Shown piece after piece: positions 34,353 to 53,651 of a DNA stretch of 64,000 nucleotides. Source of the stretch: Candidatus Falkowbacteria bacterium GW2011_GWF2_43_32. Its GTDB lineage: Bacteria > Patescibacteriota > Patescibacteriia > Patescibacteriales > UBA12465. The stretch's first letter is position 1; every line of letters starts with the position of its first letter. A program made the position numbers and the translations under genes. The stretch is taken from assembly GCA_000999715.1 (NCBI GenBank), contig LCGL01000003.1, positions 90,942 to 154,941 of the forward strand. The letters run 5' to 3'. The notes below the pieces were generated by a model, which worked only from the letters and a program-made list of their open reading frames with translations, searched no databases and was not told the origin of the DNA.

Positions 34353-34369
34353 AATAGATTGGGCTTGTT

Positions 34370-36826: not shown

Positions 36827-38054
36827 ATTTAGATTCAGTATAATTAATTTTTCTAAATATTCCGCTGAAAGATATGCTAAGCAAAACGGAAAAACTAAAA
36901 ATAAAAATTAAACCAATTTTATCTAAAGGATTCCTGAACATAGAAAAAAATGGGTAACGAGTAAATAAAAAGGTATAAACCGCCCCAATAGGGGATTTCG
37001 GCCCGTTAATCAAAAGAAAACTGCTTATTGTTAAAAAGCCAAAAATAATAATATTTTTTTTATGTCTTCTATAAAAGAAAAACGAAGAATAACAAAGAAT
37101 CGCGATTAAAAATCCCAAACTTATAAAAAGCGGAGTTTTATAAATTGCGCTATATGGGTAATATAAGTCTCCTTTATAACTGCCAAAAAAACCAAAATGC
37201 CCCATAAATCTAAACCCTTCAGCTACTTTTTGAAAACTGGCATCACCAATATATTCCAAATTAACCGTAGGCGCAGAAGTGGCGGAATTTATATCTTTAC
37301 CTATATTATATAATGCCGGTATAACCGCGTGCGACCAGGCCAGAAAAAAGGATAAGCATATTAAGAGTAAACTGAACAATCTTCTTTTTAAAAAAATTTT
37401 AAACCCTTTTCCCTCGACCTGAAAAATAAAATCTATGATCAAATAAAATAAAACCAAAACTATAAGCATTAAACCGATTAGCAAATTATTGATCCCGGGA
37501 GAAGATAAAAGAAGAAAGATAGTAAGTAAAACAAAATCTTTACGGTTTGGCTTGTTAAAAACCTTAATGCAATACAAGAGAATTATTGGCAAAAATGCAT
37601 AAATAAATAAAATTATTAGCAAATGCCAAAAGAATTGCAAGGAATATAAATTAAACATGTAAAAATTCGCCCCCAAAAATGCCGCGGCGCTAACATATTT
37701 ATCCTGTAAAATATATTTAATAAATGAAAAAAAAGAGAAACCGGAAATAAATAATAAACTAGAAAATAATAATTTCTGAATTATTGCAAACGATAACCCG
37801 ATTTTCGATAATATAAAAATAGGAAATCGAAAAAACAATAGTAACGACACGCCCCGACTTTGCATCCCTCCTAAATTAACATCTTTCCAGGTAAAGCTAT
37901 GCGTGTATAGTTCTAAAGTGGGATCAAATATAAACGGGGTATCGGCAATACTAAGTATTTGATGTTTAAACCAAAAAAAAGGAAGGATAGATCCTAAAAA
38001 AATTAAAAATATAAATATTTTATTTTGATATTTTTCTAAAAAAATACTTATCAT
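36816..38054 (-). CDS. Polytopic membrane protein, GT-C-like (AftD/DUF3367-like N-terminal region)
   Basis: 412 aa with about 10 or more TM segments. The first loop ADTPFIFDPTLELYTHSFTWKDVNLGGMQSRGVSLLLF resembles, from memory, the GDTKLDL..DP...W....FG.vQNQ loop of DUF3367/AftD enzymes. Confidence 0.45.
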   Translation of the reverse strand: MISIFLEKYQNKIFIFLIFLGSILPFFWFKHQILSIADTPFIFDPTLELYTHSFTWKDVNLGGMQSRGVSLLLFFRFPIFILSKIGLSFAIIQKLLFSSLLFISGFSFFSFIKYILQDKYVSAAAFLGANFYMFNLYSLQFFWHLLIILFIYAFLPIILLYCIKVFNKPNRKDFVLLTIFLLLSSPGINNLLIGLMLIVLVLFYLIIDFIFQVEGKGFKIFLKRRLFSLLLICLSFFLAWSHAVIPALYNIGKDINSATSAPTVNLEYIGDASFQKVAEGFRFMGHFGFFGSYKGDLYYPYSAIYKTPLFISLGFLIAILCYSSFFFYRRHKKNIIIFGFLTISSFLLINGPKSPIGAVYTFLFTRYPFFSMFRNPLDKIGLIFIFSFSVLLSISFSGIFRKINYTESKYEN

Positions 38055-38063
38055 AAAATAATA

Positions 38064-39212
38064 TTATCTTAAATCATTTAAAATATTTAAAAAATTTTCT
38101 TTTGTCAGACGCCGGGGATTATTTTTCATCCTGTCATGATTAAAACCGTTCTTAATAATAACTCTTATATCTTTATTACTAATACCTAAAGCACTTAATT
38201 TGGTTTCAAGTCCGACATTTTTTAATAATCTATGAATTTTATTTTTAGCCCCATGAACATCTGAAACACCGAATAAACCGATTAAATCTCTTATGGTTCT
38301 TTTTACATATTCAATCCCCCTTTTATCCATAATGTCTTCCGTCCCGACCTGACTATTATAAACCAACATACTTCCCAAGGTTAACGCGACCGCTTGTCCA
38401 TGGGGCACGCCGAAATAAGAAGTAATCGGATAAGAAATAGCATGGCAAGCTGTTGTTTCCGAAATATTAATGGCGCGGCCAGAGAGATTGGCCGCCCGAC
38501 TCATCGCTAATTTTGCCGAACGATTTGAATGCTTCACGGCTTTTTGAAAATTTTTTAAAATCAATTTAATCGCCTGAGCGGCGTATTTTTTCGATTCCGG
38601 GGTGGACTTTACGCTCCAATATGATTCAAGCGCCTGAGACAGAGCATCGGCTCCGGTCGCGGCCGCGATCTTTTTATCCAAACTGAGAGTAAATTGCGGA
38701 TCAATAATAGCACAATCCGGCAAAATATAAGGATGCTTTAAAGAATATTTATGTTTACCGATATAGATAACGGAAAATTGGGTTGCTTCACTGCCGGTGC
38801 CAGCTGTTGTGGGAATCGCCACTAATTTTTTACCCGGCTCTTTTATCTTCTTCTTTTTCAAAATATAATCTTTAGGGGAAGCGCCTTGAGCGGCTAAAAT
38901 ATTTATAGTTTTAGCAACATCGATCGCGCTTCCGCCGCCGATTGCAATTACCAAATCCGGATTATATTTTTTAAATAATTTTAAACCTCTTTTAATATCA
39001 ACTAAATTCGGATTAGACGAAAAGCCCGTAAAATTAAAAACAGAATATTTTTCAAAAACCGGCCGCAGTAATTTTTCCGCTCCGCAAAGCTTATAGGCCA
39101 TTTTTCCGGATACTAAAAAAATTTTCTTGACCTTATTATGGCCAAGATACTTATCTAAATTTTTAATAGCCCCCAAGCCGATATAGTTCTTTTGTGATGT
39201 TTTATCCTTCAT
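38064..39212 (-). CDS. Group III iron-type alcohol dehydrogenase; by context, phosphonoacetaldehyde reductase (FomC/PhpC-like)
   Basis: 382 aa. DLVIAIGGGSAIDVAK motif and His-rich metal-site region (ACHAISYPITSYFGVPHG). Overlaps the stop of the phosphonopyruvate decarboxylase gene by 1 nt. Confidence 0.75.
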   Translation of the reverse strand: MKDKTSQKNYIGLGAIKNLDKYLGHNKVKKIFLVSGKMAYKLCGAEKLLRPVFEKYSVFNFTGFSSNPNLVDIKRGLKLFKKYNPDLVIAIGGGSAIDVAKTINILAAQGASPKDYILKKKKIKEPGKKLVAIPTTAGTGSEATQFSVIYIGKHKYSLKHPYILPDCAIIDPQFTLSLDKKIAAATGADALSQALESYWSVKSTPESKKYAAQAIKLILKNFQKAVKHSNRSAKLAMSRAANLSGRAINISETTACHAISYPITSYFGVPHGQAVALTLGSMLVYNSQVGTEDIMDKRGIEYVKRTIRDLIGLFGVSDVHGAKNKIHRLLKNVGLETKLSALGISNKDIRVIIKNGFNHDRMKNNPRRLTKENFLNILNDLR

Positions 39213-40336
39213 TATTTTTTTAAAAAATTCATAAAATCCTTTTTGTTTTCAATCGGACTGATATTCGGACGACCAAGATCCTCCCGGGATGAAGTATTAA
39301 CCATTATTTCTATCAAAGACGGCCCGAAACTCTCTTGCGTTAAAGCAATATATTTCTTAATATCCTCCGGATTCTCCGCCCGATAAACATTTTTATATCC
39401 GCAAGCCCGAGCCAAAGATTGAATATCGATATTAAAAGCGGCGGTCGGTTGGCCACCGACTGACTCATGGCAACCGTTATTTAAAATTATGTGATGAAAA
39501 TTTTTCGGAGCAACCGAACCGATAACCGCCAAAGACCCCATATGCATAATCAGCGCGCCGTCGCCATCCAAACAATATACTCGCCGGTCTTTTTTCCGCG
39601 CGGCGATTCCTAAAGCGATTGAAGAAGAATGCCCCATCGAGCCGACCGTTAAAAAATCTTTATCATGGCTTTGACCCAAATAATCGCGGTATTCAAACAG
39701 CTCTCGCGAAGTTTTACCGGTTGTAGAAACAACAACATCTTCCGGCAATAAAGCGTCAACAATACATTTAATCGCTTCTTCACGCGAAACAGGATAATTA
39801 TTAGTCGCCTTATTTTGCAAAGAATATTTTTCAAAAGTATCTTTTTTAACAATTAAAGCATAAGGGGAATTATTATCTCTTAAATATTTACAGGCCTTAT
39901 CCAAACAAATATTTGCCTCTTCTTTCGAGGCCGGCAAAATATCGTAAGGAATAGACAAAGCTTCCAGTAATTTAGTCGTAATTTTTCCTTGCTTAATATG
40001 CTGGGGCTCATCTTTTTCGCCGGGTTCGCCGCGCCAACCAATAATTATCAACATCGGGATACTATAGACCTCGGAGTCGGCCAAAGAAACCAAAGGATTG
40101 ATAGCGTTTCCGATTCCCGAATTTTGCATATAAACCAAGCCGAAATTCCCCGTAGCCAAATAATGTCCGGCCGCTAAAGCAATAGCATTCCCCTCGTTAG
40201 CGCTAATAATATGATTTTCTCCGGCCTGATCCATTAAATAGGCACAAAAATTTTTCAATAAAGAATCCGGAACGCCGGCAAAAAAATCAATCTTTTTCTC
40301 CTTTAATAAACTGTAAAAATCTTGGCAATTGATCAT
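39212..40336 (-). CDS. ppd: Phosphonopyruvate decarboxylase (ThDP-dependent)
   Basis: 374 aa. FFAGVPDSLLKNFCAYL, ANEGNAIALAAGHYLATG, YMQNSGIGNAINPL, IGWRGEPGEKDEPQH, and the ThDP motif GDGALIMHMG...NNGCHESVGG. Confidence 0.9.
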   Translation of the reverse strand: MINCQDFYSLLKEKKIDFFAGVPDSLLKNFCAYLMDQAGENHIISANEGNAIALAAGHYLATGNFGLVYMQNSGIGNAINPLVSLADSEVYSIPMLIIIGWRGEPGEKDEPQHIKQGKITTKLLEALSIPYDILPASKEEANICLDKACKYLRDNNSPYALIVKKDTFEKYSLQNKATNNYPVSREEAIKCIVDALLPEDVVVSTTGKTSRELFEYRDYLGQSHDKDFLTVGSMGHSSSIALGIAARKKDRRVYCLDGDGALIMHMGSLAVIGSVAPKNFHHIILNNGCHESVGGQPTAAFNIDIQSLARACGYKNVYRAENPEDIKKYIALTQESFGPSLIEIMVNTSSREDLGRPNISPIENKKDFMNFLKK

Positions 40337-40337
40337 A

Positions 40338-41645
40338 TTATTTCCCTCCCGGGATTAAAGTTAAAATTTCTTTAATCGATAAACATTCGTTCTCACATTC
40401 ATAAGATCTTTCGTTAAGTAAAATTGATTTAGCCGTATTAACCATTGCCGGATAAGCACTACGTAAGAGATGATTCGCATAAATTATAATATTCACTCCG
40501 GCCTCGATTAATTCGCTCTCATAAATTTTATTAAAACTTGAAGGTACAACTACAAGCGGCACTTTCCTTTCAAATTTTTTATATTCCCGACAAAATTCCA
40601 ATATTTCATCCGCTTCTTTTTCCCGGCTATGAATCATTATTCCGTCGGCGCCGGCCTCAATATAAGCCCGAGCGCGCTTAACCGCGTCATCTAGACCTTT
40701 CTTAAGAATTAAACTCTCAATTCTGGCGATAATCATAAAATCATCCGTCACCTGAGCCTTTTTACCCATGGAAATCTTATGGCAAAAACTATCAATATTA
40801 TCCTGAGTTTGTTCAACATCCGTTCCAAATAAGGAATTCTTTTTTAAACCAATTTTATCTTCAATGATAACAGCCGAGACCCCCATTCTTTCCAAGGTCT
40901 TAACACCGAAAACAAAATGTTCAGGAATGCCACCGGTATCTCCATCAAAAATTATCGGCTTAGTTGTTACTTCCATAATATCATTGACCGTAGTCAATCG
41001 AGAAGTCAAGTCCACGCATTCAATATCTGGCTTCCCTTTAGCCGTTGAATCCGTCAAGCTACTCAACCACATACCGTCAAATTCCTTAATTCCCTTTTCA
41101 TTTTTTATTTTAAGATTATCCACAATTAAGCCGGTCAAACCATTATGCGCCTCCATGATTCTTAAAGCCGGCTTTACCTCCAATAACCTCTTTAATCTTT
41201 TCATTCTTATCTCCGGCGTTGTTCCGATCTCATGCATCTTTTCGTGCAATAAAGTCGAAGAAATTCCTTTCGTGTAAGGAAATTCTATTAATTCTCCACC
41301 CCAATCTTTCAAGGCCTCTATAACTCTGGCTCTGGCTTCTTTCTGCGCCCCTTCTTTCCAATCATCGCCATGGACGACATAATCCGGTTTTATCTCTTTT
41401 AAATTCGAAACATAATCTAAGGTATCTTGAGGTACAACTCTGATAACTCCTTTTAAGCTTTCCATAATCTCCTTTCTTTGTTCAAAAGCCAAAGCCGGTA
41501 AACGCTTATAACTGGCAATCGCCTTATCGGTCAATAATCCAATAACAACCTCGCCAAGTTCTTTGGCGCGATTGATTATATTTAAATGGCCGGGATGAAT
41601 TAAATCAGCACTCATGCCGACATATGCTATTTTTGGTTTATTCAT
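40338..41645 (-). CDS. pepM: Bifunctional cytidylyltransferase / phosphoenolpyruvate mutase (Fom1/PntC-PepM-type fusion)
   Basis: 435 aa. The N-terminal [27 protein letters not shown] carries the HxGH nucleotidyltransferase motif. The C-terminal domain has [12 protein letters not shown] and the PepM-diagnostic EDK-x5-NS ([15 protein letters not shown]). Confidence 0.9.
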
Positions 41646-41710
41646 ATATTTTTAAAAAAATAAATTTATCTTCAGCTTTCAATAGAAATAAAGATTCAAA
41701 AATTAACTAC

Positions 41711-43150
41711 TTAATCTCTGATCAATCCGTTAAGACGCTTTAACAATAAATCGGCACCCTTTCTAGAATGATCCATAACTTCACTTCTTTTTAATAAACT
41801 AAATAATTCCGAAATCTTCTGAGAAAATTTAACAAATTTTTCCTTCCTTTTAACATGGATGGAATAAATCCTATTATGTATCGTTGTTTGTTTTCTCTCA
41901 ATGTCAGAATTAAAAAGAATTTCATGTTCCTTCTCTCCCGGGCGTCGACCAATAACTTTAAAATTAACTTCGGATATCTTGTACCCCCTAACCCTGGCTA
42001 AACATTTAGCCAATTCGAGGATATTAACCGGATCACCCATCTTTAGTATATATTTCCCACCGTCACTTTTAGCCATAAAACTGGCCTGCAAGACCAAATG
42101 AACCGCTTCAGGAATAGTCATAAAATAACGGGTCATTTTCGGGTCAGTAACCGTAACTATCTTATTCTTATCAATCTGGCTAAGAAAAATCTCGACCGCG
42201 CTTCCGCTACTATTAAATACGTTACCGAAACGAACAGTCGTATACATTGTTTTAATAAAAATATCAGTAAAATATTCAACTATTTTCTCTGCCAAGCGCT
42301 TGGTTTTCCCCATTACATTACAAGGGGAAACGGCCTTATCGGTTGAAATTAAAACAAATTTCTGACAACGAAATTTACCGGCCAAATTAGCGACATGATA
42401 AGTGCCAAAAACATTATTAAAAATTCCTTCATAAATCTGAGCTTCGATAATCGGCACATGTTTATAAGCGGCGGCATGAAATACAATATCTATATTATGA
42501 TCTTTGAATAATCTTTTCAAAAGCGAAAAATTATTTATATTTCCGAGAATAAATATAACCTTGGTTGACTTATTAAGACCCGATATTTCATTAAGAAGTC
42601 GCTTAACATTAAATAAATTCTTTTCAACGCAATCTAAAATAACAAGTTTTTTTGGCCTTAAAAGATAAATCTGTTTTGATAATTCTGTTCCGATTGATCC
42701 GCCGCCACCCGTAACCAGCAAGGTTTTTTCCTTGAAATATCCGTCTAATTTTAGTTGGTCGGACTTTATTATCGCCTCCCCTACAATATCCTCAATCTCA
42801 ACCGATCTTAAATTCTTATAAGAAGCTTCATTATTAAAAACGACCTCCGATGCACGTGGCAATAATAATAATTCAATCTTATTATCTTCTCCCAGTAATA
42901 ACAAAATTTTCCTTATAAAGGATCCTCGTTCTGAAGGAACGGCAATAATAACGCTATCAATTTGATTCTTCCTGACTATTTTAGGCAAATCATTAATCGG
43001 ACCGAGGATAAATAATTTATTTCCGCTCCCCTTCTTAACCTGATCATCAACAAAACCAACTACTTTCCATTGTAAATCTTTTTGCTCCTTAATATTATTT
43101 AGGAGAAGCAAGCCGGCCTGACCGGCTCCAACAATTAATACTTTACGCAT
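41711..43150 (-). CDS. Nucleotide-sugar 4,6-dehydratase, CapD/PglF/WbpM-like (soluble form)
   Basis: 479 aa. Two Rossmann regions (VLIVGAGQAG; TLLVTGGGGSIGTELSKQI) and HAAAYKHVP. Confidence 0.85.
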   Translation of the reverse strand: MRKVLIVGAGQAGLLLLNNIKEQKDLQWKVVGFVDDQVKKGSGNKLFILGPINDLPKIVRKNQIDSVIIAVPSERGSFIRKILLLLGEDNKIELLLLPRASEVVFNNEASYKNLRSVEIEDIVGEAIIKSDQLKLDGYFKEKTLLVTGGGGSIGTELSKQIYLLRPKKLVILDCVEKNLFNVKRLLNEISGLNKSTKVIFILGNINNFSLLKRLFKDHNIDIVFHAAAYKHVPIIEAQIYEGIFNNVFGTYHVANLAGKFRCQKFVLISTDKAVSPCNVMGKTKRLAEKIVEYFTDIFIKTMYTTVRFGNVFNSSGSAVEIFLSQIDKNKIVTVTDPKMTRYFMTIPEAVHLVLQASFMAKSDGGKYILKMGDPVNILELAKCLARVRGYKISEVNFKVIGRRPGEKEHEILFNSDIERKQTTIHNRIYSIHVKRKEKFVKFSQKISELFSLLKRSEVMDHSRKGADLLLKRLNGLIRD

Positions 43151-43157
43151 AGATTAT

Positions 43158-44048
43158 TTATAATAAATTTCTTTCTTTAAGGCACCATAAAAGAGAATCC
43201 TCCAGACTGTATTGGGGCCGCCATTGATAATCTTTGACTACTTTACTGATATCGCAAGCCGTCTTATTAAGGGACTCGTTTTTATTTTCAATTAAAACTT
43301 CGGGGTTGGGCAAATTATACTGTTGCAAAATCTTTTTTAGTTTATTCAGTACTTCTCCGTAACTTATGTTGCTGCCAGAGGCTATATTATATAAAAATGA
43401 TTTACTGGGGGAGACCATAATCACACCTAATAACCGACAAAAATCACGAATGTCTAAAAAATCTCTCTCAATTTCTAGACTATTAATTAAGACCTGGCCT
43501 TTTTCTCTTTCCGCTACTGCTTTTAGCACGGCGCCGATAAAAGAACGTGGCGGCAAGGACGGGGTAATTACATTAGATAGTCTTAATACTTGAACATCGA
43601 TATTAAAGTTAGAATAATAGTAATAGCATAACGCCGTTTGAAGCAACTTTGATTCGCCATATAGAGTACTCGGGCGAGGAGCCGTATCCTCATTTATTAA
43701 ACCGCTCCTCGGATATTCAGCGGCCGAATTTATAACAATATATCTTTTTTTTCGACCGACCTCATTAATAAAAAATTTATTTAAAACAAAGCTATTAAGC
43801 TTAAAATCATCTAAATTATCAACCGCAATTTTCCCCGCACAATGAATAATAAGATCAATTTTTTTATCTTCTAATATATTAGCTATCTGATGATCGGATA
43901 TCTCTAACAAATCAAACCGTAGATCCGCCCCCATTCCTCTTGATAAGGTTAAAACCTTGTGGCCCGCTGATAAATACTTAGTTAAATAAGCCCCAATACT
44001 ACCATTGCCACCAGTAATTAGTATATTCATATTACAAATGTTTAACAA
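43158..44048 (-). CDS. NAD-dependent epimerase/dehydratase (SDR) family protein
   Basis: 296 aa. NILITGGNGSIGAYL Rossmann motif and YGESK (Y-x3-K). Confidence 0.75.
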   Translation of the reverse strand: MLNICNMNILITGGNGSIGAYLTKYLSAGHKVLTLSRGMGADLRFDLLEISDHQIANILEDKKIDLIIHCAGKIAVDNLDDFKLNSFVLNKFFINEVGRKKRYIVINSAAEYPRSGLINEDTAPRPSTLYGESKLLQTALCYYYYSNFNIDVQVLRLSNVITPSLPPRSFIGAVLKAVAEREKGQVLINSLEIERDFLDIRDFCRLLGVIMVSPSKSFLYNIASGSNISYGEVLNKLKKILQQYNLPNPEVLIENKNESLNKTACDISKVVKDYQWRPQYSLEDSLLWCLKERNLL

Positions 44049-45216
44049 TAAAGTTATATAACCGTTGAGAGGATAGACCGTCTTGATAATAATTGAACTT
44101 ATCCTTAAACTTTTTATATTTATCCTGGTACTCTTGATTACTAAACCATTCTGGCAAGGTCGTGGCTAGGCGCAATAATTCCCCCTCATTTTTCGCAAAT
44201 GGCCCAAGCATATCCTGATAATAATCATAATACATTTCCCGGCAATTATCTATATAATTCTCATAATCATAGGAATAAAATATTACTGGCTTATTCAGCA
44301 AACAAAAATCAAAAACAATACCAGAATAATCAGTAATTAAAACGTCAACACTAGTTAAGTATTCTTGTAAATTATCAACGGAATAGGTAATATCTACGAT
44401 ATTTGAATAATCCTTATAGAGCTTAATATTGCGGTTAGCATTCTGATCGGCGATATGCCTTTTAATTAAAAAAATACCATTATTTTCCTTTAAAAAAGCG
44501 TTAAACTTATCTAAAAAACTCTCAGAAAAAGGAACTAAATCCGTATAATAATCTCGGAAGGTCGGCGCATAAAGAAAAATGGTTTTATATTTACTGAGAT
44601 CCAAACTGGGAATATCCTTTTTCTCGCCTTTGACTAAAATATCATCCCGCGCATAGCCGAGACAAACAACACTCTCGTTCCTAAAACCACTTTTCAAAAA
44701 ATCAATATCAGCTTTCGATTTAGTAATAATATATTTATATTGACGCCACTCTTTTCTCATAAAATAACTAAACCAACCTTTTTGATCATCTTTGTTATCA
44801 AAAAGTATTTTTTTGATTGGCACGCCATGCCATAGATTAATAACGTTGAATCTACCTAAGGTAAAGGCCACCCCGGAAACGTCTTGCATTGATTGCTCAA
44901 CAACGAAATAGTTGGCCCTAAAAACATGCCAAATTCCTTTTAAAGAATAGGGAAATATAACCGGCAAACCTTGTTTTTTAAACTTTTCATAAATTTTTCT
45001 ATTCTTAGTCATCCAATAATAATCAAGATCTTTAACATCATGTTCTACTAAATATAGATAAAGATATTTGGTGTTACCAATAAATCTGCTTCCTAAATTG
45101 GAACCTAATAAAATTAATTTTTTCTGTTTCGGGACTAAGTAAGAAATTACAAAAAACACTGGAATCAGCAAAATATTCCTCAATACTTTGACAACAAAAT
45201 TTAACTTTTTCTGCAT
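44032..45216 (-). CDS. CDP-glycerol glycerophosphotransferase (TagB/TagF) family protein
   Basis: 394 aa. FLYAPTFRDY and VLITDYSGIVFDFCLLNKPVIFYSYD are characteristic TagF-family blocks. Confidence 0.8.
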   Translation of the reverse strand: MQKKLNFVVKVLRNILLIPVFFVISYLVPKQKKLILLGSNLGSRFIGNTKYLYLYLVEHDVKDLDYYWMTKNRKIYEKFKKQGLPVIFPYSLKGIWHVFRANYFVVEQSMQDVSGVAFTLGRFNVINLWHGVPIKKILFDNKDDQKGWFSYFMRKEWRQYKYIITKSKADIDFLKSGFRNESVVCLGYARDDILVKGEKKDIPSLDLSKYKTIFLYAPTFRDYYTDLVPFSESFLDKFNAFLKENNGIFLIKRHIADQNANRNIKLYKDYSNIVDITYSVDNLQEYLTSVDVLITDYSGIVFDFCLLNKPVIFYSYDYENYIDNCREMYYDYYQDMLGPFAKNEGELLRLATTLPEWFSNQEYQDKYKKFKDKFNYYQDGLSSQRLYNFIVKHL

Positions 45217-45237
45217 AATATTATTTATAACGCATGG

Positions 45238-46455
45238 CTATCGATCACAATAATCTTCAAAATATGACTCAAAGCCATTTGCAGTTATATCCCAATCAAA
45301 CGTTTTGGAATAATTATAACCCTCTAGCGACTTTATTTTATATAATTCTTGATCAATTAATAATCTTTTTAAATTTTGAGCAAAAGCCTCATTGTCTCTA
45401 AAGGAGGCCTTTAGAACACCTGCCCTATGAGTATCGTAACAAGGCAAATCATATTCAACAACTGGGGTGCCGACGCTAATGGCGTCTAAATAAACCAAAC
45501 CAAAACTTTCGAAGAAAGAAGGAAAAAGCAAAATCTTCGACTTTTTTAAAAAATTATATTTCTCCACGCCATATTTTGGACCTAAAAACTTAAAATCATA
45601 ACCGATCTCCGCGATTTCTTTCTCGAGCCATCCCAAATAATCTCCCTTTTTCGGGCTTTCTTTTGGGGCAATAAATATTACTGATAATTTTTGATCATGG
45701 CTTTTTTTTAAGCGTCTCAAAATATCCGGGATTTCATCTGTTCCTTTCTGCGTATGGAAGCGGCCCAAAAAACAAATGTCATAAAGTTTATTTTCCATGC
45801 TTGTTTCCGGTTCGCCGAAATACTCGCGCCCATACCTTATGACATGAAGGTTTGCATTTTTCTTCAACAGCTCTTCCCTATTAGTGGCGTTGCCACAGGC
45901 CAAAAGATCCGCTTTTTTTTGCATAAGAAAAAATAATTTCTGGTTCAACCATTGATAAACCTCAAAAAAATTAGGAATTCTAAATTTTTTAATATAAATA
46001 TGTTGACGGAGAAAAGGATTAGGAAAAACTAAATTATGGGTTACGGCAATCCAATAGGCCGTCGGATTCGCTAATTTTAAAAGAAAGGCAAAAAGCATAT
46101 TTGGCCAGGCGTCAAAATGAGAAACAATAATATTTTTTTCAGTATCGAATTTTTTAACGAATTTCAATGATTTAAAAATAATAATAAAATAACGAACCAA
46201 TATCTTAAATCGATCTCCAAGACTAGGATTATCTTTTAAAATATTAACAGTCCGAATACCACAAACTCCTGGTTCGACGGAAGATTGACTCCAACCGAAA
46301 TAATTAACCGAAGGATATTTTTTCGCCCACCTAGAAACCACTTCGTCGGTAAATTTCTCTCCTCCGCTCAAAGCGTTGCCGCAACGACAAATTGAAATAT
46401 TATGAATTGTCATTTTATTGTTTTTACTATCACCGCCCATAATTGTAATTACCAC
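45238..46455 (-). CDS. Glycosyltransferase family 4
   Basis: 405 aa. LLFPSFFESFGLVYLDAISVGTPVVEYD is the E-x7-E region. The true start may be the internal MTIHNISI. Confidence 0.75.
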   Translation of the reverse strand: MVITIMGGDSKNNKMTIHNISICRCGNALSGGEKFTDEVVSRWAKKYPSVNYFGWSQSSVEPGVCGIRTVNILKDNPSLGDRFKILVRYFIIIFKSLKFVKKFDTEKNIIVSHFDAWPNMLFAFLLKLANPTAYWIAVTHNLVFPNPFLRQHIYIKKFRIPNFFEVYQWLNQKLFFLMQKKADLLACGNATNREELLKKNANLHVIRYGREYFGEPETSMENKLYDICFLGRFHTQKGTDEIPDILRRLKKSHDQKLSVIFIAPKESPKKGDYLGWLEKEIAEIGYDFKFLGPKYGVEKYNFLKKSKILLFPSFFESFGLVYLDAISVGTPVVEYDLPCYDTHRAGVLKASFRDNEAFAQNLKRLLIDQELYKIKSLEGYNYSKTFDWDITANGFESYFEDYCDR

Positions 46456-47363
46456 TTGTGACTTAAATCAAAATATTCTCTCCGGCGCGAAATTCGCTTC
46501 ATAAATGTCCAAGCTCTAAAAAATAGACCATGAAAACGAATTGGAACAATCTTTCGTAAACTCGATACTAACCTATCAAAAACATTCTTGTTAAAATCAT
46601 GCTCTACCGCGGCGCCATCCTCAGAAAGTTTTTTATAAAAATATTGATCGGGAGACATAATTGTTTCAACCTGATTTTTCTTTCGAACCAGAAAACAATT
46701 TAAAAGACGATTGCCGGGCTTAAAAGACAAACCGACATAATCTCTCGCCTGGTTGTACTTGTGAAACCTCTGAACCCGACCACGAATTTCTATCAAATAA
46801 GCTTCGACTATCTCGAATCCGTTGTCTGTGTAAAAATCATGGAAAAAAGTTGGCGAAAATTGATAAAATCCGTGATTAAGAAAATTTTGCGCCGGAAGTA
46901 TCTGCAATACGTAACCGCCGATCTTCGCCATTCGGACAATATTTTCCATTACCGACTTTATATCAAAAATATGTTCCAAAGTACCGCTATCAATAATAAA
47001 ATTAAAAAAATCATGGAATTTAGAATCAACCGGGGATTGTAAATCATGAAGAATTTTCGGCCGATCAAAGGGAAACTTATCAATATCATAATAATCTTCC
47101 TCTTTAATTCCTAAAAATTCAAAGAAGGTTTTCGCGTGTATATAATTCGCTGCTTCCTTATTTATTTTAGGGATATCACTACTGACGGAATGCAGAATTT
47201 TTTCTAGCCGGCTAAACTCAATCTTTTCTTTTGCCAATAAACCTTCAATATTTTGAGCCGTAGCATAAATATCCTGATTTCCTAAAGTAAGAACCGGGCC
47301 AATAAATTTATATTTTTTTACTCTTTGAACAATAAATTTTAAATGAGGCGCTGGTAAACCCAT
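46449..47363 (-). CDS. Methyltransferase-fold-like hypothetical protein
   Basis: 304 aa. FNFIIDSGTLEHIFDIKSVMENIVRMAKIGGYVLQILP resembles the post-II/III region of class I SAM methyltransferases. The glycine-rich motif I is degenerate (VLTLGNQD). Confidence 0.45.
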   Translation of the reverse strand: MGLPAPHLKFIVQRVKKYKFIGPVLTLGNQDIYATAQNIEGLLAKEKIEFSRLEKILHSVSSDIPKINKEAANYIHAKTFFEFLGIKEEDYYDIDKFPFDRPKILHDLQSPVDSKFHDFFNFIIDSGTLEHIFDIKSVMENIVRMAKIGGYVLQILPAQNFLNHGFYQFSPTFFHDFYTDNGFEIVEAYLIEIRGRVQRFHKYNQARDYVGLSFKPGNRLLNCFLVRKKNQVETIMSPDQYFYKKLSEDGAAVEHDFNKNVFDRLVSSLRKIVPIRFHGLFFRAWTFMKRISRRREYFDLSHKW

Positions 47364-47404
47364 AATTTTTAATTATTGTTTTCTAAATTATTATTCTCTA
47401 ATTT

Positions 47405-48127
47405 TTATATTTTTTTTAAAATTATTTCCCAATTATAGTAACCTAAAATCGGAATTTTAATTTTTCTAATAATTTTCATAATCATATTCTCATACAATTT
47501 CCTATCAGCCAAGCCGATTCTCTTAATAAAAAAATCGGAAATCGGAAACCATTGAAGCGTTTTTTTTACTTCTAAAAATTGAAAGTTATTCTGATTAAAT
47601 AAATCCAATAATTGACAATCGGACGAATATTCTCGAAGATGAGTCGGATCCAAGACCCATTTTCCTTTATTCCTATAAAAATACCAGCCATACCACTTCT
47701 TAAAAACTGTAGAAATATAAACTATACCCCCAGCCCTAACTTTCTTTTTGATTGCTTCAATCATCTTTCGATCATCGACGTGTTCTATTACTTGAGTGGA
47801 AATAAAAAAATCGATGCTCACATCAGCTACAGTCTCTAAATTTTCCGCACTATCGACACTAGCGTTGATAGTGCCATTAATCTTCTTAACTATTTCTATT
47901 CTATTTCTTGATAAATCTATCGCTAAAATCTTCTTGCCCTTCAAGTAGCCGGCCCTATCTAAAGCGTATAAAAGAGACCCATCGCCACAACCACAATCGA
48001 GAATACTGTCGTAAGATTCAGAATTAAGATACTTCTTTAAAAGCAAAGGGATTAAGCCGTTATAATACTGCGGCGCTAATCTAGCATATTCTTCTATATT
48101 TACTGTCTCCATGTTATTAAATCTCAT
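47405..48127 (-). CDS. Class I SAM-dependent methyltransferase
   Basis: 240 aa. ILDCGCGDGSLLYAL is motif I, and FFISTQVIEHVDD is also present. Confidence 0.8.
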   Translation of the reverse strand: MRFNNMETVNIEEYARLAPQYYNGLIPLLLKKYLNSESYDSILDCGCGDGSLLYALDRAGYLKGKKILAIDLSRNRIEIVKKINGTINASVDSAENLETVADVSIDFFISTQVIEHVDDRKMIEAIKKKVRAGGIVYISTVFKKWYGWYFYRNKGKWVLDPTHLREYSSDCQLLDLFNQNNFQFLEVKKTLQWFPISDFFIKRIGLADRKLYENMIMKIIRKIKIPILGYYNWEIILKKI

Positions 48128-48158
48128 TACTATAACTAACTAAATCTACCAAGAAATT

Positions 48159-48956
48159 TTATTTAATTTTACGACCAATAAAAATAACGCAGGGACTGAA
48201 CAGTTTAGTTTCCAGACCTTTTTTTCCAAAAATTAAACGCAAAAGAGGATTTAAAATGTAACGATCCGGAAAACTTAAAATCTTCATAATATACCATCCA
48301 AAATTTCTCTTTGCTAGGGGAAGTCTAAGCTTTATAGTTCCGTATTTACCACAAAATATTTCCTGCACATCATCTCTAACGCATGCTTCGCGTAAAGTCT
48401 CTTCTTCCATAATTTTCAAATTATGGAGTGGTAAAAGATCGGGACGAAATATCTTCGCTTTCAAATAATTGAACCCTTTAAGCCGCGGTATCTGAATAAA
48501 AAAATACCCTCCTTTTTTTAAAAGGGCTAAATGAATCGCGACCGCTTTCTGCGGCGGAAGAATATGCTCCACAAATCCGTAAGAATAAACCAAATCAAAA
48601 CTTTCAGCATAAGTTTTTAACATTTTCTCGTCAAAAGCGTCGCTGATAATAGTATTTACTCCCGTCACTTGAGCATTTTTAGCCGCCGCCTCCGAATATT
48701 CAATGCCAAAAGATTGATAATTAAAAGAATCGGCCAGCTGTCTAACCAGTTTTCCATCGCCCGACCCTATTTCGCACATCTTTGGGCGCGATTCATCATT
48801 TCCTTGATATCTCGGCAAATATTTTTCCAAAATGCAATTACAAAGAAATAAATCATAAAATGAAAAAAATCCTTTCTTTGTCTTGATATGGATTTTTTTT
48901 TCATTCTTATAATATTCATCCCAATCTTGTTGTTTATATCTATTTTCAACACTCAT
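48159..48956 (-). CDS. Class I SAM-dependent methyltransferase
   Basis: 265 aa. MCEIGSGDGKLVRQL is motif I, and DLVYSYGFVEHI is also present. Confidence 0.75.
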   Translation of the reverse strand: MSVENRYKQQDWDEYYKNEKKIHIKTKKGFFSFYDLFLCNCILEKYLPRYQGNDESRPKMCEIGSGDGKLVRQLADSFNYQSFGIEYSEAAAKNAQVTGVNTIISDAFDEKMLKTYAESFDLVYSYGFVEHILPPQKAVAIHLALLKKGGYFFIQIPRLKGFNYLKAKIFRPDLLPLHNLKIMEEETLREACVRDDVQEIFCGKYGTIKLRLPLAKRNFGWYIMKILSFPDRYILNPLLRLIFGKKGLETKLFSPCVIFIGRKIK

Positions 48957-48965
48957 AAAATAAAA

Positions 48966-49976
48966 TTAAAAGTTATTATTAATACTTAAATTTTTTAAAA
49001 AACGACTATTAAATACGTTTTTATAACCAACAACTAATTTTCTTAAAATGACGCTGGGAACAATAATCGTACCCAAAGAAAAAAACCAAAATCTAATGTT
49101 AAATATATTTTGCCAGCGAAATTTCAATAAATACCAAATTTCTCTTAATAAAAATTTAAACCCCCCATAATTTTTTATCTGGACTAAACCAATGTAATTA
49201 CGAGCAATAAAATTTCTTATTAAATATTTCTTTAATTTTTTAAACTTTTCTTCAATTAAAACTTTATTTATCATATTGGCCCATGATAACATCGGAGATT
49301 TTTGATAAACGGAACAATTTCTCGAATTGCTAAATCCTATGCGGACGGCTACAATATTATCTTTTAAAATTACCGAGGAACTTTGTTTTAACATTTTCAC
49401 CACCATAGAAGCGGTCTCGACAAAAGGATTAACTTCGAAATGACCGACAATATGTTTTCTTCTAAATCCAATTCCGGAAAGCTGATCTGCTAAGGCAACC
49501 ACATCTTTGACCTGGCCAAAAGGGCTGTTTATAGAAACAACTTTTGTCTTATCAAACTGTTTTGTCACCCTAACCGGTTTACGATAATCCTCTTCAAACC
49601 AATAATAAGGTCGGACAACCGTTCCGATTTCTTCGGATATTTGAAAGGCCTTATAAATCTTTTCTAAAGCCGCGACGTCAAGAATATCATCCCCGCAAAC
49701 ATAAACTAAAATATCCGCGCTAGCTAAATTTAAACAAGCGTTCAAATTTCCGCCACAACCTAAATTTTTCTCATTAACATAAAACTTAATCCGCTCATCA
49801 TGGACCGATCTGATTAAATCAACGGTTTGATCGGTCGATTGATCATCGCTAATAAGCAATTCAAAATCCTTAAAACTCTGATTTAAAATGCTTTTAATGG
49901 TTTCCAGAATAGTCGCGGCATTATTATAAGAGGGGAGAAGAACGCTTAAGCAAGGTTTTTTTTCTTCTAAAATCAT
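48966..49976 (-). CDS. Glycosyltransferase family 2
   Basis: 336 aa. LSVLLPSYNNAATILETIKSILNQSFKDFELLISDDQSTDQT. Confidence 0.8.
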   Translation of the reverse strand: MILEEKKPCLSVLLPSYNNAATILETIKSILNQSFKDFELLISDDQSTDQTVDLIRSVHDERIKFYVNEKNLGCGGNLNACLNLASADILVYVCGDDILDVAALEKIYKAFQISEEIGTVVRPYYWFEEDYRKPVRVTKQFDKTKVVSINSPFGQVKDVVALADQLSGIGFRRKHIVGHFEVNPFVETASMVVKMLKQSSSVILKDNIVAVRIGFSNSRNCSVYQKSPMLSWANMINKVLIEEKFKKLKKYLIRNFIARNYIGLVQIKNYGGFKFLLREIWYLLKFRWQNIFNIRFWFFSLGTIIVPSVILRKLVVGYKNVFNSRFLKNLSINNNF

Positions 49977-49985
49977 CGGGGTTGT

Positions 49986-50912
49986 TTAGTTAATTAAATA
50001 CTTAATTTCTTCTTCTATCCCCGTCAATGAACTAAATTTCGGATAATACCCAAGTGTTTCCGCTTTTTTATTTTTTGAATAATAAGCATTTTTAAGACCG
50101 GTTGGGCTAATTAAATCAATATTACGACTAATCTTATACTTCAAGTTATATTTTTCTTGAAAATACTTCAAGAGATGAAAAAACGAAACAGGCTCGAGAC
50201 TATAGGCGTCAAAAAAATCATTGATTCTTTCTTTTTTTATAATTAGTTTAATTAAATTTAATATATCGTGCGGATTAATAAAATCCCGAATAAAATCATC
50301 GGGCACGGCCGTAAAAACCGTTTTATTATTTATGGCGTTGATAACATGTGACAATAGAAAACCGGAATTTTCTAAACCCAAGAAACGACTAAAAAAAGAA
50401 AAAAGACGAATATCAACAATATTCAAATCAACTAAACAACGATGCTTGGCCTCACAATTTATCTTACTTACCGCATAGCAATCTCCTTGATCGATATGAT
50501 TAATATCTAAAACAAGAAGTGATTCCGTATCAATCGGCGTCCCGACAGTTTTACCATAAACCGCGCCGCTACTAAAATTTATATATCTCGTCTTCGGACG
50601 CCGCCGAAGATAATCAAGTGCCATATTATCAAACCTTTCAGTAATCTCAAATAATTCAAAACCGGCTTCTTTCATTTCTTTCGGGTCTCCGATACCGATA
50701 CAATTTATAACCGCATCATATTCATGATTAAAAAATTCGTCAAATGAACAAGCGATAAAATTTGTCTTCTTGTCTAAACTGTCTAAAAAAGTATTAATTT
50801 TTTCCGGCGACCGGGCAAAAGCAAAAACTTCGAAGTCCTCTTCCTGCGACAAGCAATAAATCAAAGATTTCCCAATAAAACCGGTTGCTCCTAAAATAGC
50901 GATTTTTTTCAT
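49986..50912 (-). CDS. NAD-dependent epimerase/dehydratase (SDR) family protein
   Basis: 308 aa. KIAILGATGFIGKSL Rossmann motif and YAVSK (Y-x3-K). Confidence 0.75.
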   Translation of the reverse strand: MKKIAILGATGFIGKSLIYCLSQEEDFEVFAFARSPEKINTFLDSLDKKTNFIACSFDEFFNHEYDAVINCIGIGDPKEMKEAGFELFEITERFDNMALDYLRRRPKTRYINFSSGAVYGKTVGTPIDTESLLVLDINHIDQGDCYAVSKINCEAKHRCLVDLNIVDIRLFSFFSRFLGLENSGFLLSHVINAINNKTVFTAVPDDFIRDFINPHDILNLIKLIIKKERINDFFDAYSLEPVSFFHLLKYFQEKYNLKYKISRNIDLISPTGLKNAYYSKNKKAETLGYYPKFSSLTGIEEEIKYLIN

Positions 50913-51832
50913 ATTCGAGATTTATTTAACATTTTACTAATACTAGCAGCCACTAAACTCGGGCTAATTTCATGATGTTCGCAAAGATAATCACGATTGC
51001 CAACCACCTTGCAAGAATCTCTTTTTAAACCAAAGACCTTAATCATCTTTTCTCGGCCATCAAAAGCGTTCCTGACAAAAGCGGCTAAACCAAGACTACT
51101 AATATGCTCCTCAATCACAAAAACATTCTTAAAGCCGTCTAATGCTCGCCGAACATTATCACTAAAGTCATCATCAATAATCGGACAAGAAAAAACCTCC
51201 GCGGCAATCCCTTTTTCTTGCAAAAGTCCGGCTACGGAAAAAGCGTTTTCTAAAGTAGTGCTCGCCGCAACTAAAGCCACTTCTCCGACTTTATCAGCCA
51301 ATAAACCAAATCTATTTATTTTACTAACCTCTTGCGACTCTTGATGAAAAACTTTCTCACAATTCCGACCTAAGCGCAAATATTTAGGTCCCTGTTCTCG
51401 AAAAATATAATCCATAACGAATTCCACTTCCCGAGAATCGCCAGGTAAAAGCAACTTGACATTCGGCAACGATCCCATTAGGGCAATATCCTGAACGGCG
51501 TGATGAGAGTACCCTTGGCTGCCATACATAAAACCGGGTCCAACGCTGACTATTGTAACATCAAGATCATGATAACAAATATCATTTCGAATCTGCTCTA
51601 AACAACGAGTAGTATTAAAATTACCAATAGAATAAGTAAAAACTTTAAAACCGCTCAAGGCCAAGCCGGCCGCCATACCGGTCATGTTTTGCTCGGCAAC
51701 GCCGGCATTTAAAAATCTGTCTGGATTCTTTTTGACAAAGGGTTCAACAATGCCAAAGCCTAAATCACCAATAACCAAATAAGTATCGCGATCCGCTTTT
51801 TCTGTTAAAATTTTAATAAAAATATTTCTCAT
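50909..51832 (-). CDS. Transketolase, C-terminal (pyrimidine-binding) subunit
   Basis: 307 aa. DLGFGIVEPF...NAGVAEQNMTGMAAGLALSGFKVFTYS. Confidence 0.85.
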   Translation of the reverse strand: MRNIFIKILTEKADRDTYLVIGDLGFGIVEPFVKKNPDRFLNAGVAEQNMTGMAAGLALSGFKVFTYSIGNFNTTRCLEQIRNDICYHDLDVTIVSVGPGFMYGSQGYSHHAVQDIALMGSLPNVKLLLPGDSREVEFVMDYIFREQGPKYLRLGRNCEKVFHQESQEVSKINRFGLLADKVGEVALVAASTTLENAFSVAGLLQEKGIAAEVFSCPIIDDDFSDNVRRALDGFKNVFVIEEHISSLGLAAFVRNAFDGREKMIKVFGLKRDSCKVVGNRDYLCEHHEISPSLVAASISKMLNKSRI

Positions 51833-51836
51833 AATT

Positions 51837-52658
51837 TTATCCTAATTCTATTAATCCTTGCTGATATTCTTCATCTGACGGCCAACGATAATGCCACTCT
51901 AGCTTATTTTCAATAAAGGAAACCCCTCGACCCTTTATAGTATCGGCGATAATAAGTTTTGGCCTCCCCGATTGGCTATTCGATAAAACCGTAAAAGCAC
52001 GATATAATTCAGAAAAATCATGGCCGTCAATTCGCATCACCTCCCAATTAAAGGCCTCAAATTTTTTTTCTAACGGGTCAAGATTAACAACATCTTTAGT
52101 AAAACCAAAGGCCTGCAGTTTATTACAATCGATAATCACAAATAGATTATCCATCTTCAGATGGGCGGCCATTGCGAAGGCCTCCCAATTGGATCCCTCA
52201 TTCAACTCTCCATCACTTAAAATAGTAAAGGTCCTCCAAGCTTCTCCACGGCTTTTAGCGGCCAGAGCCATTCCTAAAGACACCGGCAGTCCATGCCCCA
52301 AAGATCCGGTAGAAAATTCTACTCCGGGAACCTCGGAATTAACATGGGACATCAAAATCGAATTATTTTTTGCATAAGTGTCTAATAATTCTTTAGGAAA
52401 ATATCCTAGTTCGGCTAAAATGGCATACAAAGCGGAACAAGCGTGCCCTTTGGATAAAATCAAGCGATCTCTTTCCGCGTCATCAGGATTCTTATGATTA
52501 TTTTTTAAAATCAATTTATATAAAACTACTAAAATTTCAACGATCGAGAAAGCGCTTCCAACATGAGAAGACTTGGTCGAATAAACCATTTGCCAAACAT
52601 CTTTTCTTGTTCTTCGAGCTAAATCCAATAATTCTTTTTCATCTACCTTCCCAAACAT
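51837..52658 (-). CDS. Transketolase, N-terminal (ThDP-binding) subunit
   Basis: 273 aa. SHVGSAFSIVEIL, LSKGHACSALYAILA, GSLGHGLPVSLGMALA, ILSDGELNEGSNWEA. Confidence 0.85.
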   Translation of the reverse strand: MFGKVDEKELLDLARRTRKDVWQMVYSTKSSHVGSAFSIVEILVVLYKLILKNNHKNPDDAERDRLILSKGHACSALYAILAELGYFPKELLDTYAKNNSILMSHVNSEVPGVEFSTGSLGHGLPVSLGMALAAKSRGEAWRTFTILSDGELNEGSNWEAFAMAAHLKMDNLFVIIDCNKLQAFGFTKDVVNLDPLEKKFEAFNWEVMRIDGHDFSELYRAFTVLSNSQSGRPKLIIADTIKGRGVSFIENKLEWHYRWPSDEEYQQGLIELG

Positions 52659-52667
52659 AAAATTTAT

Positions 52668-53555: not shown

Positions 53556-53651
53556 AAAATTATTGATCTATTTTGTTTATACTTAAAATAATGAACCATT
53601 CATCTCTATATTTTAAGTATATTTAAAACTCTTTAAAATAAGGTTAACTTC

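Follow-up and report, generated by a model that had tools for sequence, protein, structure and literature searches.

A 64,000-nucleotide stretch of the genome of Candidatus Falkowbacteria bacterium GW2011_GWF2_43_32, referred to here as the window, contains a gene (44032..45216) for a TagF-like protein in one operon with a cassette for making and activating 2-hydroxyethylphosphonate (2-HEP, or HEP as part of larger molecules). The product of this gene is most likely a membrane-associated TagF-family phosphotransferase whose donor is HEP activated with cytidine monophosphate (CMP-HEP) rather than cytidine diphosphate (CDP)-glycerol. On the basis of gene context and comparative genomics, we consider it on balance probable that the enzyme transfers the 2-hydroxyethylphosphonyl group from CMP-HEP to a hydroxyl of a glycan. 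What is new here is the prediction, for which comparative support is good, that a TagF-family enzyme forms a phosphonate ester from a CMP-phosphonate.

The encoded protein of 394 residues looks like a competent TagF-type enzyme, judging from its full-length family match, its catalytic histidines, and its predicted fold. Its open reading frame (ORF) matched positions 2-367 of the 367 in the Pfam profile Glyphos_transf (PF04464; E 9.7e-66, 222.6 bits), and the closest solved structures by sequence were those of TarL (8va1, E 1.5e-21) and TagF (3l7i, E 5e-19). The catalytic histidine pairs of TagF (H444/H584) and TarL (H300/H433) served as the reference; H130 and H254 of the window protein align with H444 and H584 of TagF 3l7i and are invariant across an alignment of 39 homologous sequences. 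An AlphaFold2 model of the protein (pLDDT 93.7, pTM 0.91) had its best Foldseek matches in 3l7m, 3l7i, and 3l7k, which represent the TagF C-terminal domain (TM 0.71-0.73, E 2.5e-23), followed by TarL 8va1 and TagF-like capsule multienzymes. Residues about 2-27 form a single N-terminal hydrophobic helix, and the remainder is only the GT-B catalytic region, the aligned parts being residues 198-557 of TarL and the C-terminal domain of TagF only. The NCBIfam models for TarF, TarL, and TarB gave 123.6, 101.5, and 29.9 bits against cutoffs of 550, 1000, and 500, respectively. Because every equivalog score was far under its cutoff, we dropped these names; by sequence, the product is a PF04464 family member and not an ortholog of a named teichoic acid enzyme.

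The phosphonate cassette that lies downstream consists of genes for a fusion of a cytidylyltransferase (CyTase) domain to PepM, a phosphonopyruvate decarboxylase (Ppd), and an iron-containing alcohol dehydrogenase (Fe-ADH) (Table 1). The fusion protein scored 414 bits against TIGR02320 (cutoff 319.6), and its translation contains, as a stretch of 10 residues, the motif EDKX5NS of true phosphoenolpyruvate (PEP) mutases. The Fe-ADH reached only 192.7 bits against the PsrA equivalog, for which the cutoff is 423.7. Over 137 residues, the CyTase domain shares 65% identity with PDB 5x3d (E 4.8e-58); its match to the glycerol-3-phosphate cytidylyltransferase TagD (1coz) had an E value of 6.7e-10. PDB 5x3d is a 160-residue N-terminal fragment deposited as PEP phosphomutase, which we take to be the CyTase domain of Fom1. 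The Fom1 CyTase converts 2-HEP and cytidine triphosphate (CTP) to HEP-CMP in vitro (PMC9088020, section 8.1.2; PMC6697681).

We searched all six-frame ORFs of the window for donor genes with hidden Markov models (HMMs) for PF01467-type, IspD-type, and NTP_transferase-type enzymes. The only nucleotidyltransferases detected were the PepM-fused CyTase and one further protein. The latter turned out to be RmlA-like, because it matches PF00483 over its full length and its gene adjoins RmlD. There was no stand-alone PF01467, IspD-type, or nucleotidyltransferase (NTase)-HAD (TagD/TarI-like) gene in the 64 kb. Six-frame scans of the window likewise gave no significant match to the CDP-alcohol phosphatidyltransferases (PF01066) or to LicD, whose single match at E up to 0.1, with the dehydratase ORF (E 0.0011), was spurious. 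The TagF-like gene and the cassette belong to a run of 26 same-strand genes, from 59471 down to 29611, in which every gap is at most 96 bp. The distance from the TagF-like gene to pepM is 2,386 bp, and we found no terminator-like site between the two. A preliminary description of the window had placed a TagF-family gene 2.4 kb upstream of pepM in the same orientation and had noted no glycerol-3-phosphate cytidylyltransferase apart from the CyTase fused to PepM. These observations were borne out, and the two genes moreover share one tight operon.

The same description proposed that co-occurrence of TagF-family genes with CyTase-PepM fusions be measured across genomes, and such an association was found. 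An alignment of the PepM fusion was scanned against one genome per species; of the loci obtained, at least 597 in number, we used the 80 with the highest similarity, together with 10-kb flanks. These best 80 of at least 597 loci encode fusions that are 63-93% identical and come from many bacterial phyla and several archaea. By clustering, PepM was present in 74, Ppd in 66, and ADH in 60 of them, nearly always in the same order. When Pfam families were counted among the same-strand genes next to the cassette, up to two per side (99 downstream and 97 upstream ORFs), the commonest was PF04464, with 16 downstream and 5 upstream genes. LicD followed with 9 and 4, and CDP-OH_P_transf had 2 and 2. 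Glycosyltransferase families 2 and 4 (GT2 and GT4), which usually dominate glycan loci, accounted for only 6 (4 downstream and 2 upstream) and 5 (3 and 2) ORFs in all.

Sixty-eight of the loci had 3 kb or more of flank, and we scanned these with an iterated TagF HMM and with HMMs for LicD and CDP-OH_P_transf (CDP-alcohol phosphatidyltransferase). Of the 68, 26 have a TagF-like gene no more than 3 kb from the cassette, and in 20 of them the distance is at most 300 bp; LicD was found within 3 kb in 13 loci and CDP-OH_P_transf in 8, so that 46 of the 68 had at least one of the three. Up to 3 kb from the cassette, the density of TagF-like genes was 0.74 per 10 kb, versus 0.05 per 10 kb in the 3- to 10-kb flanks, which still contain glycan genes. 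This is an about 14-fold concentration (28 matches versus 3; binomial p 6e-9, with the loci treated as independent). More than one transferase type occurred in a single locus (L072) versus 8.4 expected, and none of 20,000 permutations gave one or fewer. TagF-like, LicD, and CDP-OH_P_transf genes are thus almost mutually exclusive beside the cassette. By this comparison, the TagF family is the commonest partner of a widespread CyTase-PepM/Ppd/ADH cassette, and LicD and the CDP-alcohol transferases seem to be interchangeable alternatives to it.

The 26 TagF-bearing loci represent at least 14 named lineages, including one archaeon. Among them are Bacteroidales, Ignavibacteria, WOR-3, Elusimicrobia, Cloacimonadota, Rifleibacteriota, Thermodesulfobacteriota, Thermoanaerobaculia, Xanthomonas, Methylonatrum, Rhodobacteraceae, Stackebrandtia, Clostridium, and a Methanobacteriota archaeon. 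Cultured organisms with both the cassette and an ortholog of the TagF-like gene are Methylonatrum kenyense AMT 1 (L043), Xanthomonas chitinilytica H13-6 (L037), and Stutzerimonas stutzeri 24a13 (L025). In the Candidatus Stackebrandtia locus (L072), the PF04464 gene adjoins the same cassette, just upstream of PepM. One divergent clade, c4, accounts for 16 of the 26 TagF-like genes; its members still match PF04464 (38-45 bits, cutoff 22.1), and the loop after their catalytic histidine, Y[VI]FH[AS]..VSTH, is unlike those of the glycerol and ribitol types.

The c4 loci are L011, L013-L017, L019, L021, L029, L038, L041, L057, L059, L064, L070, and L075, and in the sampled loci this clade occurs only directly beside the cassette. 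In the loci of Bacteroidales type, c4 is followed by an ORF of ~780-1,130 residues in which YidC (60KD_IMP) and a sulfatase-like domain are joined.

The closest cassettes are those of sister Patescibacteria, whose PepM proteins are 93% (L005), 89% (L168), 86% (L167), and 82% (L169) identical to that of the window. In L005, L168, and L167, a PF01066 CDP-alcohol phosphatidyltransferase gene lies 0-5 kb upstream of pepM, and in L169 a sulfatase-family gene follows ADH. No TagF-like gene was present within the ~8-10 kb of flank retrieved around these sister cassettes. L005 is otherwise syntenic with the window over seven flanking genes. Compared with its sisters, then, the window has a block with GT4, TagF, short-chain dehydrogenase/reductase (SDR), and dehydratase genes, and PF01066 was lost or was never there. 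From the gene content, this looks like non-orthologous displacement, in which one CMP-releasing transferase was swapped for another in the window genome. The arrangement in the sister genomes suggests that they make HEP-lipids or use a different acceptor.

Alternatively, the TagF-like protein might be an ordinary phosphotransferase for CDP-glycerol or another CDP-alcohol, with its donor gene outside the 64-kb window. In that case CMP-HEP would be used by another enzyme or be lipid-bound, and the proximity to pepM would reflect only a common glycan island. We regard this alternative as somewhat unlikely. It has to do without a TagD, TarI, or NTase-HAD gene in the 64 kb, and it would leave the operon without a recognizable consumer of CMP-HEP, as neither LicD nor CDP-OH_P_transf is there, versus the 46 of 68 cassettes that have one of the three transferases close by. 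It must also contend with sister genomes that hold a CDP-alcohol transferase exactly where the window does not. In its favor, the block of GT4, TagF, an SDR in some cases, and dehydratase is conserved by itself in other genomes. The closest relatives of the window protein, P0002 (70% identical) and P0003 (62%), are on contigs of 4-5 kb that carry this block, in part with a methyltransferase gene between GT4 and TagF. In the locus of the closest TagF relative (L165), the accompanying GT4 is 58% identical to that of the window and the dehydratase also adjoins the TagF-like gene; in that of the 62% relative (L166), the order TagF-SDR-dehydratase is kept.

TagF-like genes from metagenomes provided evidence on both sides. 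A scan with the TagF alignment gave 80 loci at 23-44% identity, and a full PepM adjoins the TagF-like gene in 6 of them (L093, L109, L111, L112, L126, and L134), the usual order being PepM-Ppd-ADH-TagF. Five of these six PepM proteins are CyTase fusions, and that of L111 is fused to a PF12804-type domain; L173 is a seventh TagF-like locus with PepM beside the gene. Other TagF-like genes adjoin TagD-like, glycerol-3-phosphate (G3P)-dehydrogenase-CyTase, IspD-SDR, NTP_transf_3-HAD, or CyTase-GFO genes. Where at least 3 kb was available on both flanks, a nucleotidyltransferase lay within 3 kb of 19 of 26 TagF-like genes. A TagF-like gene thus usually adjoins its own donor gene, and in the window the only candidate for that gene is the PepM-fused CyTase.

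Several observations weigh against CMP-HEP as the donor. The remaining 7 of those 26 TagF-like genes (about 27%) have no local donor gene, which is in favor of the CDP-alcohol alternative, and a tagD elsewhere in the window genome is possible. The closest relatives with a visible gene context go with non-phosphonate donor genes or with none. There is no nucleotidyltransferase close to P0004 (45% identical); the neighbor of L085 (43%) is an NTP_transf_3-HAD fusion, and that of P0016 (42%) is an IspD-SDR fusion. The nearest PepM-associated relative, L093, is only 34% identical. No pepM starts in the 134 bp between the L166 block and the contig end, which is uninformative to slightly negative. 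In most of the supporting loci the TagF-like gene directly adjoins the cassette; in the window it is 2.4 kb away. The co-occurrence statistics treat as independent loci that are related by phylogeny. The classical TagF-like proteins associated with PepM are polyphyletic and scattered among those associated with TagD. Such genes were therefore recruited to the cassette on repeated occasions, and since orthology does not point to any one donor, we set aside donor inference from it. In the full-text literature searched, whose scope excluded Yu et al. 2014, there was no statement of TagF or PF04464 partnering pepM or accepting a CMP-phosphonate.

The donor loop was also considered as a guide to the substrate. 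In the TarL study, a "PL" loop was assigned to glycerol and an enlarged "GAF" loop to ribitol (PMC10901376). The loop of the window protein reads W129-H-G-V-P133-I134-K. Sorted by context, about 20 of 23 relatives adjoining TagD have "PL", and 5 of 7 adjoining IspD-SDR have "VG[LYF]". The "VPI" of the window is identical to the loop of the PepM-associated L093, and "PI" is found beside PepM in L093, L109, L112, L039, and L173 and beside NTase-HAD or CyTase-GFO genes in L170-L172. The P-I loop first looked enriched, with 4 of 8 proteins in PepM contexts versus 0 of about 21 in TagD contexts. As a signature of CMP-HEP it failed a predictive test, which also counts against the phosphonate donor: only one of four PI proteins on long contigs (P0106) was beside PepM, the other three adjoined NTase-HAD or CyTase-GFO genes, and the "PM" protein P0032 was likewise not beside PepM. 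For a CDP-alcohol donor speak the resemblance of the compact P-I loop to the glycerol-type "PL" of TagF and TarF (PMC10901376) and the NTase-HAD and G3P-dehydrogenase genes that adjoin the PI relative in L171, with similar genes in L170. By sequence comparison, the compact loop argues against CDP-ribitol without separating CDP-glycerol from CMP-HEP. The earlier suggestion of a CMP-phosphonate transferase has real comparative backing in the clustering with the cassette, the near-exclusive alternation with LicD and CDP-OH_P_transf, and the usual place of TagF-like genes beside a donor gene; for this particular protein it gains nothing from the nearest relatives or from a donor signature.

Two observations concern these proteins individually. 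Between the window protein and the database cluster representative P0001, a single residue of 394 differs, P133Q (window codon CCA, 44818..44820). P133 is the counterpart of P447 of TagF, within the "PL" loop that binds the donor polyol; the difference may stem from an error in sequencing, or it may be variation within the population at a site that bears on specificity. In L001, the locus of the Parcubacteria relative P0004, the TagF-like gene is followed by pyruvate-kinase-like and ATP-sulfurylase-like (PUA_2 plus ATP-sulfurylase) genes. No recognizable cytidylyltransferase is present near P0004 in this locus, and its donor pathway may be of an unrecognized type.

With CMP-HEP as the donor, the pathway would run as follows. 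PEP would be converted to phosphonopyruvate by PepM, then to phosphonoacetaldehyde by Ppd, and then to 2-HEP by Fe-ADH, as the enzyme families and the characterized Fom1, Fom2, and FomC suggest. The PepM-fused CyTase, given its identity to 5x3d, would join 2-HEP with CTP to give CMP-HEP. The N-terminal helix would keep the TagF-like enzyme at the membrane, where H130 could act as the base that deprotonates a hydroxyl of a glycan, be it lipid-linked or still growing. The activated hydroxyl would attack the phosphonate phosphorus in line, with H254 assisting the departure of CMP; this mechanism follows the scheme drawn for TarL and TagF (PMC10901376). The expected product is glycan-O-P(O)(O-)-CH2CH2OH, a 2-hydroxyethylphosphonate monoester on a sugar. 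The adjacent GT4 gene and the PglF-like/SDR sugar genes probably encode the enzymes that build the acceptor glycan, and probably one or a few units are added per acceptor in the manner of TarF and TagB, not processively.

In the only HEP glycans that have been characterized, HEP is reportedly linked as an ester to hexose or glycerol, and poly-HEP is not known from them. The preliminary description had also raised the idea of a processive polymerase that adds HEP to the hydroxyl of the preceding HEP, giving poly(hydroxyethylphosphonate) as an analog of poly(glycerol phosphate). Such a polymer is chemically possible, in that transferred HEP keeps a primary hydroxyl, and polymerases exist in the TagF family. 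Polymerizing PF04464 members carry an additional N-terminal domain, and TarB and TarF each add single units (PMC10901376). The window protein covers only the catalytic region of the solved polymerases and has no such extra domain, and its best full-length NCBIfam match, though far under the cutoff, is the single-unit enzyme TarF. A HEP homopolymer is unlikely for these two reasons, and we consider the processive enzyme very improbable.

A different polymer would result if the neighboring GT4 and the TagF-like enzyme alternated, such that HEP is first joined to a sugar as an ester and then itself receives a sugar on its free hydroxyl, yielding a teichoic-acid-like [sugar-O-CH2CH2-P(O2)-O-]n. 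We hold this to be a long shot. If true, an ultra-small bacterium of the candidate phyla radiation (CPR) would make a polymer with hydrolysis-resistant C-P bonds in its backbone.

In a metagenome-assembled genome of Rhodobacteraceae (L068), a 928-residue fusion of a TagF-like domain (PF04464, 193 bits) to GT4 is encoded directly after PepM-Ppd-ADH. By analogy, this fusion could be a single-polypeptide version of the pair formed by GT4 and the TagF-like enzyme, if the two do alternate.

The operon around the TagF-like gene has the character of a glycan locus (Table 1). Its G+C content is about 0.33, versus 0.45-0.48 in the flanks; over ~30000..54000 the values are 0.29-0.38, versus 0.45-0.49 elsewhere in the window. 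The low G+C content, together with gene content unlike that of the sister L005, suggests a horizontally exchanged, hypervariable glycan island.

Table 1. Positions of genes in the window and of related genes in other loci (locus name before the colon)
Feature	Position	Strand	Family or remark
TagF-like phosphotransferase, 394 aa	44032..45216	-	PF04464; ATG start; N-terminal helix plus GT-B catalytic region
CyTase-PepM fusion	40338..41645	-	PF01467 at residues 12-134; PF13714 at residues 152-409
Ppd	39212..40336	-	TIGR03297, 509 bits (cutoff 312.5)
Fe-ADH	38064..39212	-	PF00465 and PF25137; putative phosphonoacetaldehyde reductase making 2-HEP
GT4 glycosyltransferase	45238..46455	-	PF00534; 21 bp upstream of TagF-like gene
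SDR epimerase/reductase	43158..44048	-	PF01370; start overlaps TagF-like stop by 17 bp
PglF/WlaL-like UDP-HexNAc 4,6-dehydratase	41711..43150	-	PF02719; conserved beside the TagF-like gene in L165 and L166
RmlA-like sugar-1-phosphate nucleotidyltransferase	8508..9233		PF00483
B12-binding class-B radical S-adenosylmethionine (SAM) enzyme	53652..55175	-	Within operon
Polytopic membrane protein, 412 aa	36816..38054	-	Directly after Fe-ADH; overlaps start of 818-aa gene by 11 bp
818-aa protein	34370..36826	-	Homologs flank the cassette in L005 and L003, there Pfam GT-C_AftD
Split transketolase	among 50909..52658 and 49986..50912	-	N-terminal and pyrimidine-binding/C-terminal halves as two genes
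SDR	49986..50912	-	Within operon
Sugar-tailoring genes	among 56253..57188, 33495..34352, 46449..48956
680-aa ORF	60511..62553	-
499-aa ORF	27757..29256	-
PF01066 gene, sister genome	L005:9256-9975		CDP-alcohol phosphatidyltransferase
PF01066 gene, sister genome	L167:4141-4992		CDP-alcohol phosphatidyltransferase
PF01066 gene, sister genome	L168:5036-5791		CDP-alcohol phosphatidyltransferase
TagF-like gene of clade c4 (example)	L017:13568-14815		PF04464
YidC/sulfatase-like fusion (example)	L017:14827-18216		60KD_IMP
TagF-like/GT4 fusion, 928 aa	L068:4298-7081		PF04464
TagF-like locus of P0004	L001:11232-13717

Other genes of the operon bear on the glycan or on the group transferred. Fom3, the class-B radical SAM enzyme of fosfomycin biosynthesis, methylates HEP-CMP, and CMP is then hydrolyzed off to give a small-molecule antibiotic. 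Given a radical SAM gene in an operon for CMP-HEP, the transferred group in the window might, by analogy, be hydroxypropylphosphonate. The window gene is not recognizably Fom3: its best NCBIfam matches were HpnJ (141 bits, cutoff 577.6) and the PhpK family (66 bits), generic class-B matches only, and we set that identity aside. Similar genes (cluster c21) lie near the cassette in L020, L029, L049, L060, and L071, mostly from DPANN archaea. The split transketolase and an SDR, both inside the glycan operon, suggest an unusual sugar, possibly branched or two-carbon-extended. The sugar-tailoring genes encode a UDP-glucuronate decarboxylase (UXS, for UDP-xylose synthesis; E 1e-119 against human UXS1), a short UDP-glucose-dehydrogenase-like protein, and two to three SAM methyltransferases.

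The 412-residue membrane protein was considered as another possible transferase; neither Pfam nor NCBIfam gave a match for it and no fetched locus has a homolog, so that it provides evidence neither for nor against that role. Together with the 818-residue protein, it may form a split GT-C-type glycosyltransferase. Of two further ORFs in the window, that of 680 residues has a C-terminal part that is class-II aminoacyl-tRNA-synthetase-like by eye and a long unrelated N-terminal part, and that of 499 residues has a GYGYGYGYG repeat near its N terminus.

If the TagF-like enzyme does use CMP-HEP, the substrate range of a drug-target family would reach beyond phosphodiesters to phosphonate esters, and a surface decoration would have been described for CPR bacteria. 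2-HEP ranks among the two most abundant phosphonates of high-molecular-weight dissolved organic phosphorus in the sea (PMC8931226), and an enzyme that esterifies 2-HEP to polysaccharide bears on how the marine phosphonate pool is made.

Among known systems, the window protein is like the TagF/TarF/TagB/TarL family (3l7i, 8va1) in its full-length PF04464 match, catalytic histidines, predicted GT-B fold, and N-terminal membrane-associating helix. It has the single-domain size of TarF and TagB, and CMP would be the leaving group in both. It differs in scoring far under the TarF, TarL, and TarB cutoffs, in coming from a member of the Patescibacteria (Falkowbacteria) rather than from a Firmicute, in having no CDP-glycerol or CDP-ribitol synthase nearby, and in its predicted product, a phosphonate ester and not a phosphodiester. 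The Gram-negative TagF-like capsule polymerases (PMC5974469; 8qoy, 8a0c) share the predicted fold and exemplify the cooperation of TagF-like with glycosyltransferase domains in non-Firmicutes. They are multidomain enzymes that use CDP-glycerol or similar phosphate donors, whereas the window protein has a single domain and GT4 is a separate neighboring gene. The architecture of the L068 fusion resembles that of the capsule polymerases making poly(glycosyl-glycerol phosphate) (PMC5974469).

The phosphonate side has its own precedents. With the Fom1-Fom2-FomC system of Streptomyces fosfomycin biosynthesis, the window shares the logic of CyTase-PepM, Ppd, and Fe-ADH, but its cassette sits in a glycan operon and CMP is proposed to leave during transfer to a sugar. 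The Pnt pathway (Rice et al. 2019, PMC6697681) is similar in that a phosphonate is CMP-activated by a nucleotidyltransferase fused or adjacent to Ppm and is transferred to cell-surface glycans. There, PntC is of the LicC type (PF12804) and acts on 2-aminoethylphosphonate (AEP), and a LicD-like protein was named as the likely transferase; here, the compound is HEP, the activating domain is of the PF01467 type, and the candidate transferase is of the TagF type. The prevalence of PepM fusions to PF01467 and PF12804 domains and the cytidylyl activation of phosphonates have been published, with LicD-like proteins only suggested as transferases (PMC6697681); the supplements of that paper make no mention of PF04464. 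A "CDP-OH" group of phosphonolipid-type clusters has been described (PMC8942020). No paper of the literature searched names an enzyme that moves an activated phosphonate onto a cell-surface glycan. The cassette partners found here include TagF-like, LicD, and CDP-OH_P_transf proteins.

Actinomycete HEP phosphonoglycans reportedly contain xylose and O-methyl-galactose, and the window operon likewise encodes UDP-xylose synthesis and several methyltransferases. Glycomyces and Stackebrandtia, whose phosphonoglycans with 2-HEP were described by Yu et al. 2014, make a HEP-containing exopolysaccharide and have a pepM cluster; they are Actinobacteria and not CPR bacteria, and their transferase was reportedly not identified by experiment. 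These phosphonoglycans are cited in PMC8942020 and PMC13576164, and the exopolysaccharide of Stackebrandtia nassauensis carries a HEP conjugate (PMC8942020). Taken with the PF04464-PepM locus of Candidatus Stackebrandtia, a different species, this exopolysaccharide suggests a chemical link between TagF-like genes beside the cassette and HEP on a glycan.

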